A stretch of 64,000 nt of DNA from Lachnospiraceae bacterium (GCA_045639565.1 JAZUDH010000092.1:29466-93465); one strand, 5' to 3'; shown: positions 1 through 6,356, counted from the stretch's first letter. Numbers and translations are program-made. The notes: generated by a model from the sequence alone, not told the origin.

Positions 1-46
1 TGAAGTTACAGGAAAATTAAGAGTAAAGGTACAGGAAAATGGCTGA
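1..46 (+). CDS. rplI: 3' end of an upstream ORF truncated by the window edge, probably ribosomal protein L9
   Basis: Frame 2 reads ...EVTGKLRVKVQENG with a stop at 44-46, overlapping the helicase start. This resembles L9 C-termini, and rplI followed by the replicative helicase is the usual Firmicutes arrangement. Only 14 codons are visible. Confidence 0.4.
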   Translation, partial: EVTGKLRVKVQENG

Positions 47-1388
47 GGAATGGCAGAAAAGGGTGCTTCCTCATAGTATAGAGGCTGAGAAATCAGTTTT
101 AGGCTCTATGCTAATTGACAGAGATGCGATTACGGTCGCTTCTGAAGCTTTGTTAGGGGAAGATTTTTATATCAAGCAAAATGAGATATTGTTTGATAGT
201 ATGATTGAATTGAATAATGAAAACAAGCCTGTTGATCCTATTACCCTTTTAGATAGACTTAAGGAAAAAGATATCCCTCCAGAAATGTCCAGTATGGAAT
301 ACGTGATGGATTTAGTTAATTCTGTTCCTACAGCTGCCAATGTAAAGCATTATGCTCAGATAGTATCAGAAAAGGCTACGCTTAGAAAACTTATAAGAGT
401 TAATGAAGATATTGAAAACAGCTGTTATACTCAGTCTGATCCAGTCGAGGTTATCTTAGAAGAGACTGAGAAGAAGGTTTTTAAGGTAGTTCAGAAGCGT
501 AACGCAGGTGATTTTGTACCTATAAGTGTTGTAGTTAACAACGCGTTGGATAAGATATCCACAGCGGCTAAAAACAAAGGTTCTGTAACTGGTATTCCTA
601 CTGGATTTACGGATCTTGACTATAGAACAGCTGGTTTACAGCCTTCAGATCTTATTCTTATTGCAGCCAGACCATCAATGGGTAAAACTGCATTTGTTCT
701 TAACATTGCTCAACATGTAGCAATAAAGCAACATTTGCCATTAGCTATATTCTCGTTGGAAATGTCGAAGGAGCAGCTCATTAACCGTATGTTCTCATTG
801 CAGTCAGGTGTTGATGCGCAGAAGCTTCGTGTAGGTAATTTAAATGAATCTGACTGGGAAGATCTTATTGAAGGTGCCAGTGATATAGGAAAGTCAAAGC
901 TTATTATAGATGATACTCCAGGCATAAGCATTGGCGAGCTTAGATCAAAGTGTCGTAAATATAAGCTTGAAACAGGCCTTTCTATGATTATGATCGACTA
1001 CTTACAGTTGATGACTGGTTCAGGAAAGAGTGGAGAATCGAGACAGCAGGAAATATCTGATATTTCTCGTTCGCTTAAATCTCTTGCGAGAGAGCTACAA
1101 GTTCCCGTCATTGCTCTTTCGCAGCTAAGCCGTGCTGTTGAACAACGACCAGACCATAGACCTATGCTTTCTGACCTTCGTGAATCTGGAGCTATCGAGC
1201 AGGATGCCGATGTTGTAATGTTTATCTATCGTGATGATTATTACAACCATGAATCAGAAAAGAAAGGCATATCTGAAATTATTATCGCTAAGCAGCGTAA
1301 CGGCCCTATTGGTACGGTAGAATTAGCTTGGCTACCAGAACTTACTAAATTTGCTAACCTTGCTAGAGAAAATCCAAATCAATATTAG
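39..1388 (+). CDS. dnaB: Replicative DNA helicase (DnaB family; called DnaC in Bacillus)
   Basis: 449 aa. Has the N-terminal 'LPHSIEAEKSVLGSML' motif, Walker A 'ARPSMGKTAF', 'MIDYLQLM', and the 'SQLSRAVEQRPDHRPMLSDLRESGAIEQDAD' helicase motifs. Confidence 0.95.
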   Translation: MAEEWQKRVLPHSIEAEKSVLGSMLIDRDAITVASEALLGEDFYIKQNEILFDSMIELNNENKPVDPITLLDRLKEKDIPPEMSSMEYVMDLVNSVPTAANVKHYAQIVSEKATLRKLIRVNEDIENSCYTQSDPVEVILEETEKKVFKVVQKRNAGDFVPISVVVNNALDKISTAAKNKGSVTGIPTGFTDLDYRTAGLQPSDLILIAARPSMGKTAFVLNIAQHVAIKQHLPLAIFSLEMSKEQLINRMFSLQSGVDAQKLRVGNLNESDWEDLIEGASDIGKSKLIIDDTPGISIGELRSKCRKYKLETGLSMIMIDYLQLMTGSGKSGESRQQEISDISRSLKSLARELQVPVIALSQLSRAVEQRPDHRPMLSDLRESGAIEQDADVVMFIYRDDYYNHESEKKGISEIIIAKQRNGPIGTVELAWLPELTKFANLARENPNQY

Positions 1389-1395
1389 TAAATTA

Positions 1396-1430
1396 AAAAA
1401 CCCGAACTCGTTGTGAGTTCGGGTTTTCTT
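1396..1430. terminator. Bidirectional intrinsic terminator between dnaB and the ferredoxin gene
   Basis: Hairpin aaaacccgaactc/gagttcgggtttt, flanked by an A-run on one side and a T-run on the other. Confidence 0.7.
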
Positions 1431-2471: not shown

Positions 2472-2510
2472 CTAAAAAAATAAGGGGTTCGGAAATCTCC
2501 GAACCCCTTC
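2472..2510 (-). terminator. Intrinsic terminator downstream of the glycyl-radical-domain gene and upstream of pflA
   Basis: On the minus strand: aaggggttcgg-agattt-ccgaacccctt followed by a T7 run. Confidence 0.7.
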
Positions 2511-2528: not shown

Positions 2529-2771
2529 TTAGAAATTATCGTGGAATGTACGAGAGATTACGTCTGCCTGCTGTTCAGGTGTTAACTTAATGAAGTTAAC
2601 TGCGTAACCAGATACACGAATTGTTAACTGAGGATAGTTTTCAGGATGCTGCTGAGCATCAAGAAGAGTCTCTCTATTAAGAACGTTAACGTTAAGGTGA
2701 TGTCCACCCTTTGTTACATAACCATCAAGTAATGAAACAAGGTTTTCAACCTGCTGTGTATTAGCTGCCAT
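2529..2771 (-). CDS. Free-standing glycyl-radical domain protein (GrcA/YfiD-like), equivalent to the C-terminal domain of PFL
   Basis: 80 aa. '[67 protein letters not shown]' carries the RVSGYAV glycyl-radical fingerprint. Has its own AGGAGG RBS 8 nt upstream of the ATG. Confidence 0.9.
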
Positions 2772-2795
2772 TGTTTATTTCCTCCTGCTTACTAT

Positions 2796-2999
2796 TTATT
2801 CGTAATCGTCTAGCCCTTGATGTAATGTCGGAACACTACATGCTAAAGGAGTTCTAGAACAGTCGGTGCAACCCATGGTTTGCACTGACTTAGCAGCTTT
2901 AGCATTAGCATCGAAATCTACGTTTACATGGCCAACACCTCTTGCTACATCGGCATCTAGCATTTTTACAAGATCTTCAATCATACTTTGCTCATTCAT
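2796..2999 (-). CDS. Small three-cysteine peptide (67 aa) encoded between the PFL core and the glycyl-radical domain gene
   Basis: MNEQSMIEDLVKMLDADVARGVGHVNVDFDANAKAAKSVQTMGCTDCSRTPLACSVPTLHQGLDDYE. GGAGG lies 8 nt upstream of the ATG at 2999; the track's upstream ATG at 3014 overlaps that RBS. The N-terminal 23 residues align with the glycyl-radical domain N-terminus at 10/23 identities by hand. Confidence 0.55.
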   Translation of the reverse strand: MNEQSMIEDLVKMLDADVARGVGHVNVDFDANAKAAKSVQTMGCTDCSRTPLACSVPTLHQGLDDYE

Positions 3000-3023
3000 G
3001 GGTCTCACCTCCATAGTAAATAA

Positions 3024-5063
3024 TTATTTGCTTAAATCGAGATCGATATCGCCTGCAAATACCTTATCTTCTTTACCAAGTGCTCCAGGGATAATTGTGA
3101 AGGTATTTGAGATACCATCCTGTGAATCCATGAAAGGAAGCTTAGCAACTGAAGAAAGTGATGCAACAGCACCGTGTGTATCACGCTGGTGCATAGGGTT
3201 AGCACCAGGAGCGAAAGGCTGTCCCTTTCTACGTCCATCAGGTGTGTTACCTGTAGCCTTACCATATGTAACGTTTGAAGTAATTGTAAGAACTGACATT
3301 GTAGGGAATCCATCTCTGTATGTATGATGTCTTCTGATCATTGTCATGAACTTATGTACTAATTCTGTAGCGATTGAGTCTACGCGATCATCATCGTTAC
3401 CATACTTAGGGAAGTCACCTGTTGTTTCGAAGTCTGTGATGATACCATCTTCGTCACGAATAACTTTAACCTTAGCATACTTGATAGCTGAAAGTGAGTC
3501 AGCAACAACTGAAAGACCAGCCATACCTGTAGCGAAGTATCTACGAACATCTCTGTCGTGGAGAGCCATCTGAGCTCTTTCATAACAATACTTGTCATGC
3601 ATGTAGTGGATAACGTTAAGTGTATTTACATAAACGTCAGCTAACCATTCCATCATGTCTGTGTACTTAGCCATTACATCATCATAATCAAGGTATTCAC
3701 CTTCAACAGGACGATACTTAGGTCCTACCTGCTTCTTTGTAACTTCATCAACACCACCGTTGAGAGCGTAAAGAAGACACTTAGCAAGGTTAGCACGTGC
3801 TCCGAAGAACTGCATTTCCTTACCGATTCTCATTGAAGATACACAGCATGCGATGCCGTAATCATCACCATGAGTTACACGCATAAGGTCGTCGTTTTCG
3901 TACTGGATAGAAGATGACTGGATAGACATCTTAGCACAGAACTTCTTGAAGTTTTCAGGAAGTCTTGTTGACCATAATACTGTTAAGTTAGGTTCAGGAG
4001 ATGAGCCTAAGTTTGTAAGTGTATGTAAGTAACGGAAAGACATCTTTGTTACCATGTGACGTCCATCAACACCAACACCACCGATTGATTCTGTTACCCA
4101 TACAGGGTCACCAGCGAAAATCTGGTTGTATTCAGGTGTACGAGCAAACTTAACGCAACGAAGCTTCATGATGAAGTGATCAACAAATTCCTGGATTTCT
4201 TCTTCTGTAAATGTTCCGTTAGCTAAGTCTCTTTCAGCGAAGCAGTCGATGAATGTAGATGTACGTCCAAGTGACATAGCAGCACCATTCTGTTCCTTAA
4301 CTGCTGATAAGTAACCAAAGTATGTAGCCTGGATAGCTTCCTTAACGTTAGAAGCGGGCTTAGAAATATCGCAGCCGTATGATGCAGCCATCTGCTTCAT
4401 CTGCTTTAATGCTACGATCTGTTCAGAAATTTCTTCACGAAGACGAATAACATCATCTGTCATGATACGTCCTGTAGAATCCTTCTGAGCAAGCTTGTCT
4501 TCGATAAGACGATCAATACCGTAAAGAGCGATACGTCTGTAGTCACCGATGATACGTCCACGTCCGTAAGCATCAGGAAGACCTGTGATAACGTGAGATG
4601 AACGACATGCTCTCATTTCATCGTTGTAAGCATCGAAACATCCAGCGTTGTGTGTTTTTCTGTGTGTTGAGAAGAACTCGCTGATTTCAGGATCAACTGT
4701 GTAACCATTATCAGCACAAGCCTTTTCTGCCATACGGATACCACCGTAAGGCTGCATTGAACGCTTGAAAGGCTTATCTGTCTGGAAACCTACGATAGTT
4801 TCCTTGCTCTTATCAAGGTATCCTGGTCCGTGAGAAACGATAGTAGAAACAACCTTAGTGTCCATATCAAGAACGCCGCCTGCTTCTCTTTCCTTCTTAG
4901 CGAGATCAAGAACCATGTTCCATAAATCTTTAGTGTTCTGTGTGGGAGCTGCGAGGAATGTATCATCTCCATCATAAGGATGATAGTTCTTCTGGATGAA
5001 ATCACGTACGTTGATTTCATTTTCCCACTTGCCGCCTACAAAATCTTTCCATTCTGGTCTCAT
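3024..5063 (-). CDS. pflB: Formate C-acetyltransferase (pyruvate formate-lyase) catalytic core, lacking the C-terminal glycyl-radical domain
   Basis: 679 aa from '[13 protein letters not shown]', with AGGAGG 9 nt upstream. Contains the catalytic Cys pair '[13 protein letters not shown]'. It ends '...[23 protein letters not shown]', before any RVSGYAV motif. Confidence 0.93.
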
Positions 5064-5330
5064 TTTGAAATGCCTCCTGTGAGTATAATTAAATTGTGAA
5101 TGATGAAAAATCATCGAATCATTAAAATTGTATACATTACTTCTAATGCAAGGTTATTATAGTCTATCCATAAAACCTCGTCAAGAAAACGTAATGTTCT
5201 TTTTTACGTACAAAGTGCTGAAAATGGGGGATTTTAGAAAGTTTTAATGATTGATGCACTGGGTACTTGGTTGAAAAAGAGAAGCTTTGGTATTATACTA
5301 CAGATGTCAAAGAATGAAAGGAGTAAAAAC

Positions 5331-5528
5331 ATGAGTGCAATTAGTAAAGAAATGACTATTGGTGAGATCTTAAGAGTAGCTCCTGAAGCAGCACCTTTAC
5401 TTATGCAGGCTGGTATGCACTGCTTAGGTTGTCCGTCAGCTCAGGCTGAATCATTAGAAGAAGCTGCAATGGTTCACGGTATTGATATCGATGAATTAAT
5501 GGATTATTTTTCTAAGAACTTAAAATAA
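5331..5528 (+). CDS. DUF1858 / hybrid-cluster-protein-associated redox disulfide-type small protein
   Basis: 65 aa from the internal ATG, with RBS aaaggag. '[49 protein letters not shown]' contains the CxxC motif typical of this family. Confidence 0.75.
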
Positions 5529-5630: not shown

Positions 5631-6356
5631 TTATCCGATTTCTGCAAGCGTTGAAATAGCTTGACTAGCACAAATTACCTCAAAATGCTCTTTTACATAA
5701 GACTCAGACATAAGCTTACCTTTTTGAACAGCACCGTACTCAGCAAGAATATTGCACACTTGCACGAAATCTGTCACATCCATGTTGCCTTTCTTTACTG
5801 TGAGAAGGTATTCTCCTGTAGAGCTGTCCATATAAAGTGAACTAGCAGCAACAAAGAATTTTGAAATTGATTTGCATACCGAAGCAAGCTTTGTTATAGA
5901 GTCAAAAGAAAATGCCATACCATCAAATGCAGCAAGATCAATCTTGGCGTTGTTATTAGCAGTTACGGCTTCTTTAAATTTTTTAAATAAATCGCTGATG
6001 CTTCCTGTGTCAGAAGTGTTCTCAACTTCTGGAATGTCGAAATCATCTGAATCATCAGATTCGCTTACACCAGGCGCAAACTTAGAAAACCTAGTATCAA
6101 GCTCCTCAGGATCTTCAACTTTTGTGATGATAAGAACTATACACTCGGCATTAACGGGAATCGCTTCTATCATTAATGGAATATTTTCTGCTTCAAATCC
6201 GTACTCATCATTAGCCTTTTCCATCATGTCCCTAAAAAGATCCTTAGCTTTATCTGAACCATATGCTAATTCACTAAGCTTAAGCTCTCTGGATGCTAAA
6301 TCGGCTTGTGTTAAAGTACAACGAATCTGATGCTCGTTTACTTTTTCTATTTTCAT
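5631..6356 (-). CDS. mecA: Adaptor protein MecA (ClpC/ClpE adaptor)
   Basis: 241 aa. The N-terminus 'MKIEKVNEHQIRCTLTQADLASRELKLSEL' and an acidic linker followed by a C-terminal domain are typical of the MecA family. Confidence 0.85.
   Translation of the reverse strand: MKIEKVNEHQIRCTLTQADLASRELKLSELAYGSDKAKDLFRDMMEKANDEYGFEAENIPLMIEAIPVNAECIVLIITKVEDPEELDTRFSKFAPGVSESDDSDDFDIPEVENTSDTGSISDLFKKFKEAVTANNNAKIDLAAFDGMAFSFDSITKLASVCKSISKFFVAASSLYMDSSTGEYLLTVKKGNMDVTDFVQVCNILAEYGAVQKGKLMSESYVKEHFEVICASQAISTLAEIG

Follow-up and report, generated by a model that had tools for sequence, protein, structure and literature searches.

Among glycyl radical enzymes, pyruvate formate-lyase (PFL) is the most widespread; for fermenters of the gut and rumen, it provides a main route by which pyruvate is converted to acetyl-CoA and formate. 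Here, we analyze a PFL locus from a Lachnospiraceae bacterium, situated within a stretch of 64,000 nucleotides (GCA_045639565.1 JAZUDH010000092.1:29466-93465; 'the window' hereafter denotes this whole stretch), in which the enzyme is split into three pieces: a catalytic core, a 67-aa protein that we refer to as p67, and an 80-aa glycyl-radical protein, GrcA3. The closest described system is that of E. coli, where the radical domain of PFL must leave the barrel for activation by PflA, and where the small protein YfiD/GrcA, equipped with its own copy of strand beta10 and a Gly loop, rescues oxygen-cleaved PFL (PMC8683613, PMC13450708). E. coli PFL truncated to residues 1-695 displays wild-type activity in the presence of YfiD once activated, and residues 696-733, which comprise the duplicate beta10 and half of the Gly loop, serve in the recognition of YfiD and are required both for its binding and for activation (PMC8683613). 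In a 2026 review, such spare-part proteins figure solely as means of repairing formate lyases; the small accessory subunits listed there belong only to HPAD, BSS and MASS, with none for formate lyases, and a split PFL is not mentioned (PMC13450708). The present locus differs from this account on both counts, in that the radical domain is permanently provided in trans and is accompanied by an unannotated Cys-pair module.

The likeness to E. coli PflB with GrcA/YfiD, and in particular to tPFL(1-695) with YfiD (PMC8683613; PDB 1h16, 6owr), is that a small protein made of beta10, Gly loop and helix would complete the barrel; a duplicate beta10 strand is likewise part of the tPFL(1-695)/YfiD system, in which the truncated core is catalytically competent. 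The differences are equally clear: the core is here genetically truncated at about residue 681, the piece in trans would be obligate rather than a means of oxygen repair, GrcA3 is devoid of the 60-residue disordered N-terminus of YfiD, and the duplicate strand resides on a separate 67-aa protein together with a Cys-pair motif.

The core is a bona fide PFL up to its break point. It matches Pfam PF02901 (E = 2e-219) and NCBIfam TIGR01255 (formate C-acetyltransferase; 1098.4 bits, cut-off 994.2), thereby passing on its own the equivalog cut-off of this model, and the adjacent catalytic cysteines are in place. It departs from the single-chain form of PFL in that the RVSGYAV radical domain is encoded on the separate 80-aa protein. 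The alignment to E. coli PflB covers residues 10-681 with the core and residues 683-757 with GrcA3, and since the core occupies TIGR01255 positions 2-665 of 744 and GrcA3 positions 664-743, the two pieces abut exactly. A previous reading of this DNA, made before any database search (the sequence-only reading), had thus correctly placed both the 679-aa core with its GIACCVS Cys-Cys motif and the break point. Its sum of 679 and 80 residues to a full-length PFL holds roughly, as far as the abutting of the pieces is concerned, but not for the last 12 core residues, which are a conserved new tail and not PFL sequence. The pattern of this tail, V[FI]xGD[IL][DE]xDL, is common to all loci, and the core always ends after it; the same tail precedes a fused Cys motif in other lineages and is also present in PDB entry 38lb (see below). 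Judged by eye only, the GDIDLDL of the core tail alternates like the beta10 strands HHLNVNV of GrcA3 and GHVNVDF of p67, and the split-PFL system may therefore hold three versions of this strand. An alternative 696-aa start of the core exists at position 5114; homologues begin at the MRPEW position. Two further core cysteines, C376 and C429, were considered as additional metal ligands and dropped, as they also occur in full-length clostridial PFLs.

GrcA3 is composed of a helix, strand beta10, the Gly loop and a C-terminal helix. In Pfam, its match is to the latter half of the Gly_radical domain (PF01228, positions 50-106); in NCBIfam, it reaches the cut-off of NF038360, 'autonomous glycyl radical cofactor GrcA3' (rad_fix_GrcA3; 158.2 bits, cut-off 158). 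Gly55 of RVSGYAV lies 25 residues from the C-terminus, and the motif is invariant in 12 of 12 aligned GrcA3 relatives. The protein has its own start codon and an AGGAGG ribosome-binding site (RBS), as had been noted from the sequence. GrcA3 does not belong to GrcA/YfiD as modelled by TIGR04365 (99.4 bits against a cut-off of 170, with 19 residues preceding the matched region), nor does it fit the YfiD task of repairing a damaged intact PFL, its partner core being without a radical domain in 79 of 79 genome loci. Because the adjacent core ends before the radical domain, we infer with high confidence that GrcA3 is an obligate radical subunit and not an emergency spare part. The earlier phrase 'constitutive spare part' is a fair description in this respect, the adjacent core having no radical domain of its own. 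The NF038360 name implies a repair role, yet GrcA3 mostly adjoins a radical-domain-less core or a p67 gene, and the NCBI wording 'autonomous cofactor' probably undersells an obligate subunit.

The core stop and the GrcA3 start are separated by 252 nt, which the sequence-only reading had regarded as a gap of about 250 bp. This part of it was not borne out, as the interval holds the conserved p67 gene. p67 matches no Pfam or NCBIfam family. Its homologues amount to 1764 at E <= 0.01, every source name shown being 'hypothetical protein', and an exhaustive profile search returned 206 clusters at 50% identity. Those with an organism name are from Lachnospiraceae (e.g. Eubacterium ventriosum) and Oscillospiraceae (Candidatus Egerieicola), and one more p67 is encoded in a metagenome locus with a core that matches a protein bearing the name of Holdemania filiformis. 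Three large repeat proteins matching the p67 profile (P0220, P0264 and P0268) were discarded as spurious low-complexity matches.

Profile comparison resolves p67 into two parts of different descent. Residues 1-31 are homologous to GrcA3 residues 1-32 (hhalign probability 96.3%, E = 1.5e-9), the shared stretch comprising the helix and the strand that corresponds to beta10 of E. coli PFL, and residues 44-67 are homologous to C-terminal extensions of radical-domain-less cores (probability 97.4%, E = 9e-12). By these alignments, p67 is a chimera in which a helix/beta10 duplicate is retained and the Gly loop is replaced by a Cys-pair loop. Selection acts unevenly along the protein: the N-terminal block I-[DE]-D-L-V-x-M-L-D...G-x-G-H-V-N-V has a ratio of nonsynonymous to synonymous substitution rates (dN/dS) of 0.107, the linker is least constrained (0.76), and the C-terminal block VQTMGCTDCSRTPLACSVPTLHQGLDDY is near-invariant among the listed Lachnospiraceae relatives (0.034). 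Family-wide, H24, C54 and P57 are invariant, and at least 90% of the sequences retain D15, G23, N26, C47 and A53; the spacing of the conserved cysteines varies across p67 and fused tails (CC, CxC, CxxC, Cx4-8C). A Foldseek search of the predicted p67 structure against the PDB gave no matches, and the p67 profile retrieved nothing below E = 0.2 from the PDB sequences.

Could the split simply be a frameshift, an assembly error or a decaying pseudogene, with p67 as a chance open reading frame (ORF) or an unrelated peptide precursor? The three ORFs lie in one reading frame, as they would in a recently interrupted gene, and p67 is small and Cys-rich like some modified-peptide precursors. To address the distribution of the layout, the p67 pattern was used as a marker to scan GTDB contigs, one genome per species, whereby at least 585 of the 599 pattern matches were found to encode a p67 relative. 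All 80 genome loci that were fetched hold p67 followed by grcA3; the core gene is directly upstream of p67 in 79 of them, the remaining one (L061) starting at p67. Downstream of grcA3, pflA follows in 74 of the 80 loci and is succeeded in nearly all by a ferredoxin gene, sometimes after an insertion; pflA was not found in the other 6 loci, and several of these contigs end soon after grcA3. Distant p67 relatives (Oscillospiraceae, the lineage with the Holdemania-like core and others) keep the same neighbours. The pairwise dN/dS values of 0.095 for p67 and 0.067 for GrcA3 point to purifying selection on each piece, although with dS saturated (> 1) these figures are approximate, and no protein of the locus is better conserved than the core, which is 84-98% identical to that of the window in the 79 related loci containing it. 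Spacing and relative frame of core, p67 and grcA3 differ between loci, a pattern that a shared sequencing error would not produce, and hundreds of genomes and metagenomes, assembled independently of one another, show the same stops, RBSs and gene order. As for a peptide precursor, the C-terminus of p67 is its most conserved part and no SPASM-type maturase, transporter or protease is encoded nearby; a role as precursor of a radical-SAM-modified peptide (SCIFF, ranthipeptides) was likewise rejected in view of the constrained C-terminus and of the only nearby radical-SAM protein being a standard PflA. On the comparative data, the arrangement lies far outside chance and each of these readings is left with practically no probability, and the sequence-only reading was right to regard the split as natural, the synteny comparison that it had called for showing the same gene order throughout the fetched loci.

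With regard to the origin of the arrangement, core, p67 and grcA3 share one reading frame in the window, and grcA3 is in frame with p67 in 41 of 75 related loci (18 and 16 in the other two frames), that is, above one third. This excess may be a trace of an origin by interruption of one ORF, or may reflect phylogenetic non-independence. Two distinct copies of the split locus (L005, JAZQOL010000048; L006, JAZQOL010000004), with p67 sequences 84% and 82% identical to that of the window, occur in one metagenome-assembled genome, which could be due to paralogy or to mixed strains in the bin.

A link between p67 and the core is provided by lineages in which the Cys-pair module is fused to the core. 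Two PDB entries named 'Formate acetyltransferase', 38lb and 38la, match the core of the window better than E. coli PFL does, and both are PFL cores without a radical domain. The 38lb chain (739 aa) corresponds to the 718-aa protein P0424 plus a tag, and the 38la chain counts 687 aa. 38lb aligns to the present core with 1126 bits, conserved tail included, and carries at its C-terminus the fused Cys motif ...ENKPDCACAADASAKEG...; its locus is without p67, the core gene being followed by an 80-aa GrcA3 gene (166 bits with the GrcA3 model) and then by pflA. Among named sequences, those nearest to 38lb belong to Atopobiaceae. GrcA3 and p67 chains are absent from both entries. The 38la chain terminates precisely at ...SLGKED, and 38la_A and 38lb_A differ, their PDB codes being consecutive. 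Because no linked paper was found for 38la and 38lb, the entries suggest that structural work on split PFLs exists outside the searchable literature. An AlphaFold2 model of P0424, built from 32 close homologues, had a mean pLDDT (predicted local distance difference test score) of 40.6, at which the position of the Cys tail was not readable. Further fused cores carry the motif '...VFVGDIDVDLDCAGGACCSPTLFEGLD...', in fragments named Oscillospiraceae, Ruminococcaceae or unclassified Clostridia, or the motifs '...IQIENPAPDCGCC' and '...DCACxADASAxEG...', in Atopobiaceae (Olsenella, Thermophilibacter, Atopobium).

The two forms of the module are distributed in a complementary manner. Where the core tail is devoid of cysteines, a p67-type gene comes next (the window, all Lachnospiraceae loci, L081-L085, L088, L092, L093 and L094); in loci with a core-fused Cys motif, the gene of the radical protein comes next and p67 is missing (L086, L087, L089-L091). 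As judged from these gene arrangements, the complementarity of p67 and fused tail is a Rosetta-stone type link of p67 to the core.

An independent test was made from the GrcA3 side, using the 80 closest GrcA3 relatives in a separate metagenome collection. Upstream of grcA3, p67 was encountered at 40 loci, a core with a Cys-pair tail at 15, and a core with neither Cys-pair tail nor p67 match at 5; 14 were orphan genes away from any core, 5 were the C-terminus of an ordinary full-length PFL, and 1 was too near a contig end. Hence, 60 of the 80 relatives adjoin a radical-domain-less core, or a p67 gene whose core is off the contig, and the Cys-pair module accompanies at least 55 of these 60 split loci, as p67 or as fused tail. 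One locus classed with neither module (L155) carries a divergent p67-like ORF missed by the profile. A fourth layout is seen at L149, L158, L163 and L174, in which a core with the tail ...VFTGDLDADELGLDIDDLIKLQQ and no Cys pair is followed by pflA and then by a grcA3 with GGYHLNVNV. In a neighbour-joining tree of the C-terminal 250 core residues, computed without support values, two full-length PFLs fall inside the split group and the tail types are scattered; this tree speaks neither for nor against a single origin of the split or a given order of fusion and fission of the Cys module.

The orphan genes bear on a further explanation, namely that GrcA3 is a repair part only, an intact PflB encoded elsewhere doing the work and the present core being inactive or serving another role. 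The NCBIfam name of GrcA3 points in this direction, and the 14 orphans among the 80 closest metagenome relatives indicate that copies resembling spare parts do exist. No second PFL or radical domain was detected in the 64-kb window, to which the search was confined, and this confinement likewise leaves room for such an enzyme elsewhere in the genome. The conservation of the core, its score above the equivalog cut-off and its retained Cys-Cys pair speak against an inactive protein, as does the fact that it is always co-oriented with GrcA3 and, where present, with pflA; we therefore judge a pure repair role to be very improbable. Orphan genes were observed, among others, at L096, L105, L124, L126-L129 and L138; several lie just 3' of a gene for what looks from its sequence like a Crp/Fnr-type regulator, and one adjoins a thioredoxin-like ORF with a WCGPC motif. 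They may be true spare-part copies in genomes that also hold a split operon.

Taken together, these results incline us to a model, which we hold to be rather probable, in which a working PFL is assembled from separate chains with an obligate radical domain in trans, and in which p67 serves as a placeholder or recognition element for the loading of GrcA3. The core would form a ten-stranded barrel with Cys406/Cys407 that ends where the last strand and the radical domain would begin; the missing strand (beta10), the radical loop with Gly55 and the closing helix would come in trans from GrcA3, on which PflA would presumably install the radical. With modest confidence, we propose that, in the radical-free core, p67 takes up the vacant beta10/radical-domain slot, promotes the loading and activation of GrcA3, and is displaced once GrcA3 binds. 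p67 and GrcA3 would use the same binding surface, because they share the docking residues (L-V, L-D, G, H, N-V). The role proposed for p67 mirrors that of E. coli residues 696-733 in YfiD rescue (PMC8683613). The Cys pair would probably render the loading step sensitive to thiol redox state: as the spacing of the conserved cysteines varies, a redox-active dithiol is preferred over a fixed metal site, and this variable spacing may point to a thiol-redox gating of GrcA3 loading. A further-reaching version, which we put forward tentatively and consider less probable than its opposite, is that of a radical cartridge, in which GrcA3 would be an inexpensive, exchangeable carrier of the radical and p67 or the fused tail a redox-gated safety lever, seated in the beta10/radical-domain slot, that permits loading and activation of GrcA3 only under reducing and oxygen-free conditions.

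Several observations weigh against the model. AlphaFold2 predicts p67 alone as one helix (residues 3-19) and otherwise coil (pLDDT 73.8). The Cys-pair module is not universal, since 4 metagenome loci with the order core-pflA-grcA3 are without Cys-pair tail or p67 match. GrcA3 exceeds its NCBIfam cut-off by 0.2 bits only, and to this are added the approximate nature of the dN/dS values and the confinement of the second-PFL search mentioned above. Moreover, p67 could be an inhibitor instead of a helper if it shares the slot with GrcA3, and the cis-fused Cys motif must coexist with bound GrcA3, which a stable ternary complex fits equally well.

The latter point leads to the main alternative, according to which p67 or the fused tail is a permanent accessory subunit that binds a metal or Fe-S cluster within a stable complex of core, p67 and GrcA3. 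The conserved cysteines and the invariant His24 would be suited to such a site. In addition, short Cys-containing proteins are encoded beside the catalytic subunits of other glycyl radical enzymes (BSS beta/gamma, HPAD gamma, MASS beta/gamma/delta) and are thought to influence the radical domain and its dynamics (PMC13450708). These subunits differ from p67, however, in being HiPIP- or rubredoxin-like with four-ligand Fe or Fe-S sites, to which p67 bears no similarity in sequence or fold. p67 has an N-terminus derived from the radical domain, and it does not provide a four-ligand (Cys4 or Cys3His) site, only C47 and C54 together with H24 being kept family-wide; two cysteines of variable spacing would be unusual for a defined metal site. 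Furthermore, the conservation of His24, a residue of the strand copied from the radical domain, may reflect docking only. On balance, we consider the permanent metal-binding subunit unlikely, though deserving of more attention than the other alternatives.

The Cys pair could also be a swinging dithiol arm, which would keep Cys406/Cys407 reduced or would quench or protect the radical, and which would be re-reduced by thioredoxin-like proteins. Class I and class II ribonucleotide reductases possess a C-terminal Cys-pair tail that re-reduces the disulfide formed at every turnover. As in those enzymes, an acidic, flexible tail with a Cys pair, here of variable spacing, is placed C-terminally on a ten-stranded-barrel enzyme that employs a thiyl radical, a likeness that we take as a lead only. 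The module occurs only with radical-domain-less cores, in which the active site would be exposed, and in Lachnospiraceae a CxxC redox-disulfide protein (TIGR03980) is conserved divergently upstream. PFL differs from ribonucleotide reductase, however, in having no disulfide-forming turnover step; its catalysis leaves the cysteines unoxidised, and a turnover-linked need for re-reduction is not known. The upstream CxxC gene is unlinked in other lineages, and an arm reaching the active site is without structural support. We therefore regard the swinging arm as rather doubtful and retain the model in which p67 assists the loading of GrcA3.

The features of the operon are compiled in Table 1. Six features, from the promoter-like site to the ferredoxin gene, are co-oriented on the minus strand (5184 to 1444). 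The ORFs of core, p67 and GrcA3 are each preceded by a GGAGG-type RBS located 6-8 nt 5' of the ATG, that of the core being AGGAGG at 8 nt. PflA scores 284 bits with its model (cut-off 232), and a cognate activase is thus encoded nearby, with the ferredoxin as its likely electron donor. The strong terminator separating the module from pflA, which the sequence-only reading had pointed out, consists of a 12-bp stem (7 G-C pairs) and a 4-nt loop followed by ATTTTTTT; we infer that it would hold the activase below the level of the structural chains.

Table 1. Features of the split PFL operon (positions in the window).
Feature	Position	Strand	Evidence or remark
Promoter-like site, TTGACG-17-TATAAT, 5' of the core gene	5156..5184	-	Consensus match only, 11/12
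PFL catalytic core, 679 aa + stop, without glycyl-radical domain	3024..5063	-	PF02901, TIGR01255
Codons of catalytic Cys406-Cys407 (GIACCVS)	3843..3848	-	E. coli C418/C419 in the alignment
Conserved acidic C-terminal tail of the core	3027..3062	-	Absent from full-length PFLs
p67, 67-aa small protein (MNEQSMIEDL...GLDDYE)	2796..2999	-	RBS GGAGG at 3012..3008
p67 residues 1-31, copy of the first helix and beta-strand of the radical domain (IEDLVKMLD...GVGHVNVDF)	2907..2999	-	hhalign
p67 residues 39-67, Cys-pair module (VQTMGCTDCSRTPLACSVPTLHQGLDDYE), Cys44/Cys47/Cys54	2799..2885	-	Conservation, profile match
GrcA3, 80-aa stand-alone glycyl-radical protein	2529..2771	-	NF038360; RBS AGGAGG at 2786..2781
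Gly55 codon in RVSGYAV, predicted radical site	2607..2609	-	Aligned to E. coli Gly734
Intrinsic terminator, grcA3/pflA junction	2472..2509 (stem 2509..2482)	-	Hairpin + T-run
pflA, PFL-activating radical-SAM enzyme, 254 aa	1692..2456	-	TIGR02493
2x[4Fe-4S] ferredoxin, 55 aa	1444..1611	-	Pfam Fer4 families

Downstream of the operon, a hairpin with a 14-bp stem (1397..1427, plus strand) lies between the ferredoxin gene and the convergent dnaB (39..1388) and is probably a terminator for both directions. In 63 of the fetched loci, among them the distant L081, a dnaB gene in convergent orientation follows the operon at a distance of a few kb. On the other side, just 5' of the core gene and divergent from it, a 93-aa protein with a CxxC motif (HCLGCP) is encoded at 5247..5528 on the plus strand; it matches DUF1858 and TIGR03980, 'hybrid cluster protein-associated redox disulfide domain' (92 bits). 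This gene is kept in nearly all Lachnospiraceae loci with enough upstream sequence and is not linked in the fused-tail lineages. Its product could be a thiol-redox partner or its position plain synteny; as a dedicated redox partner of the operon it was set aside, being next to it only within Lachnospiraceae. A 241-aa MecA-like adaptor protein follows at 5631..6356 on the minus strand (weak matches to the models 'adaptor protein MecA' and 'genetic competence negative regulator', all below their cut-offs); many Lachnospiraceae loci have its gene in synteny with that of the DUF1858 protein.

The split as such is already known to curators, as witnessed by the NCBI GrcA3 model and the radical-domain-less cores in the PDB. 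In the searchable literature, we found no paper using the name 'GrcA3', and none on a split or truncated PFL of this kind with its radical domain in trans, on p67, or on 38la and 38lb. Neither p67 nor its equivalence to the fused Cys tails seems to have been described, and p67 is the least understood and most novel part of the locus; for annotation, the finding concerns a protein that is at present labelled 'hypothetical protein' wherever a source name is shown.

Overall, the layout extends over several hundred Lachnospiraceae species and, by protein names and closest relatives, also over Oscillospiraceae, Holdemania-like and Atopobiaceae lineages. It offers a natural system for the questions raised by the work on YfiD, namely how a free radical domain is recognized, loaded and activated, as well as for the role of the duplicate beta10 and for the prevention of unwanted radical formation. 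In practical terms, it bears on how gut commensals tolerate oxygen and on engineering glycyl radical enzymes in modular form. If GrcA3 were indeed an exchangeable cartridge, formate lyases would gain in p67 their first described accessory subunit, and these bacteria would survive oxygen pulses by replacing an 80-residue part and not a 760-residue enzyme.

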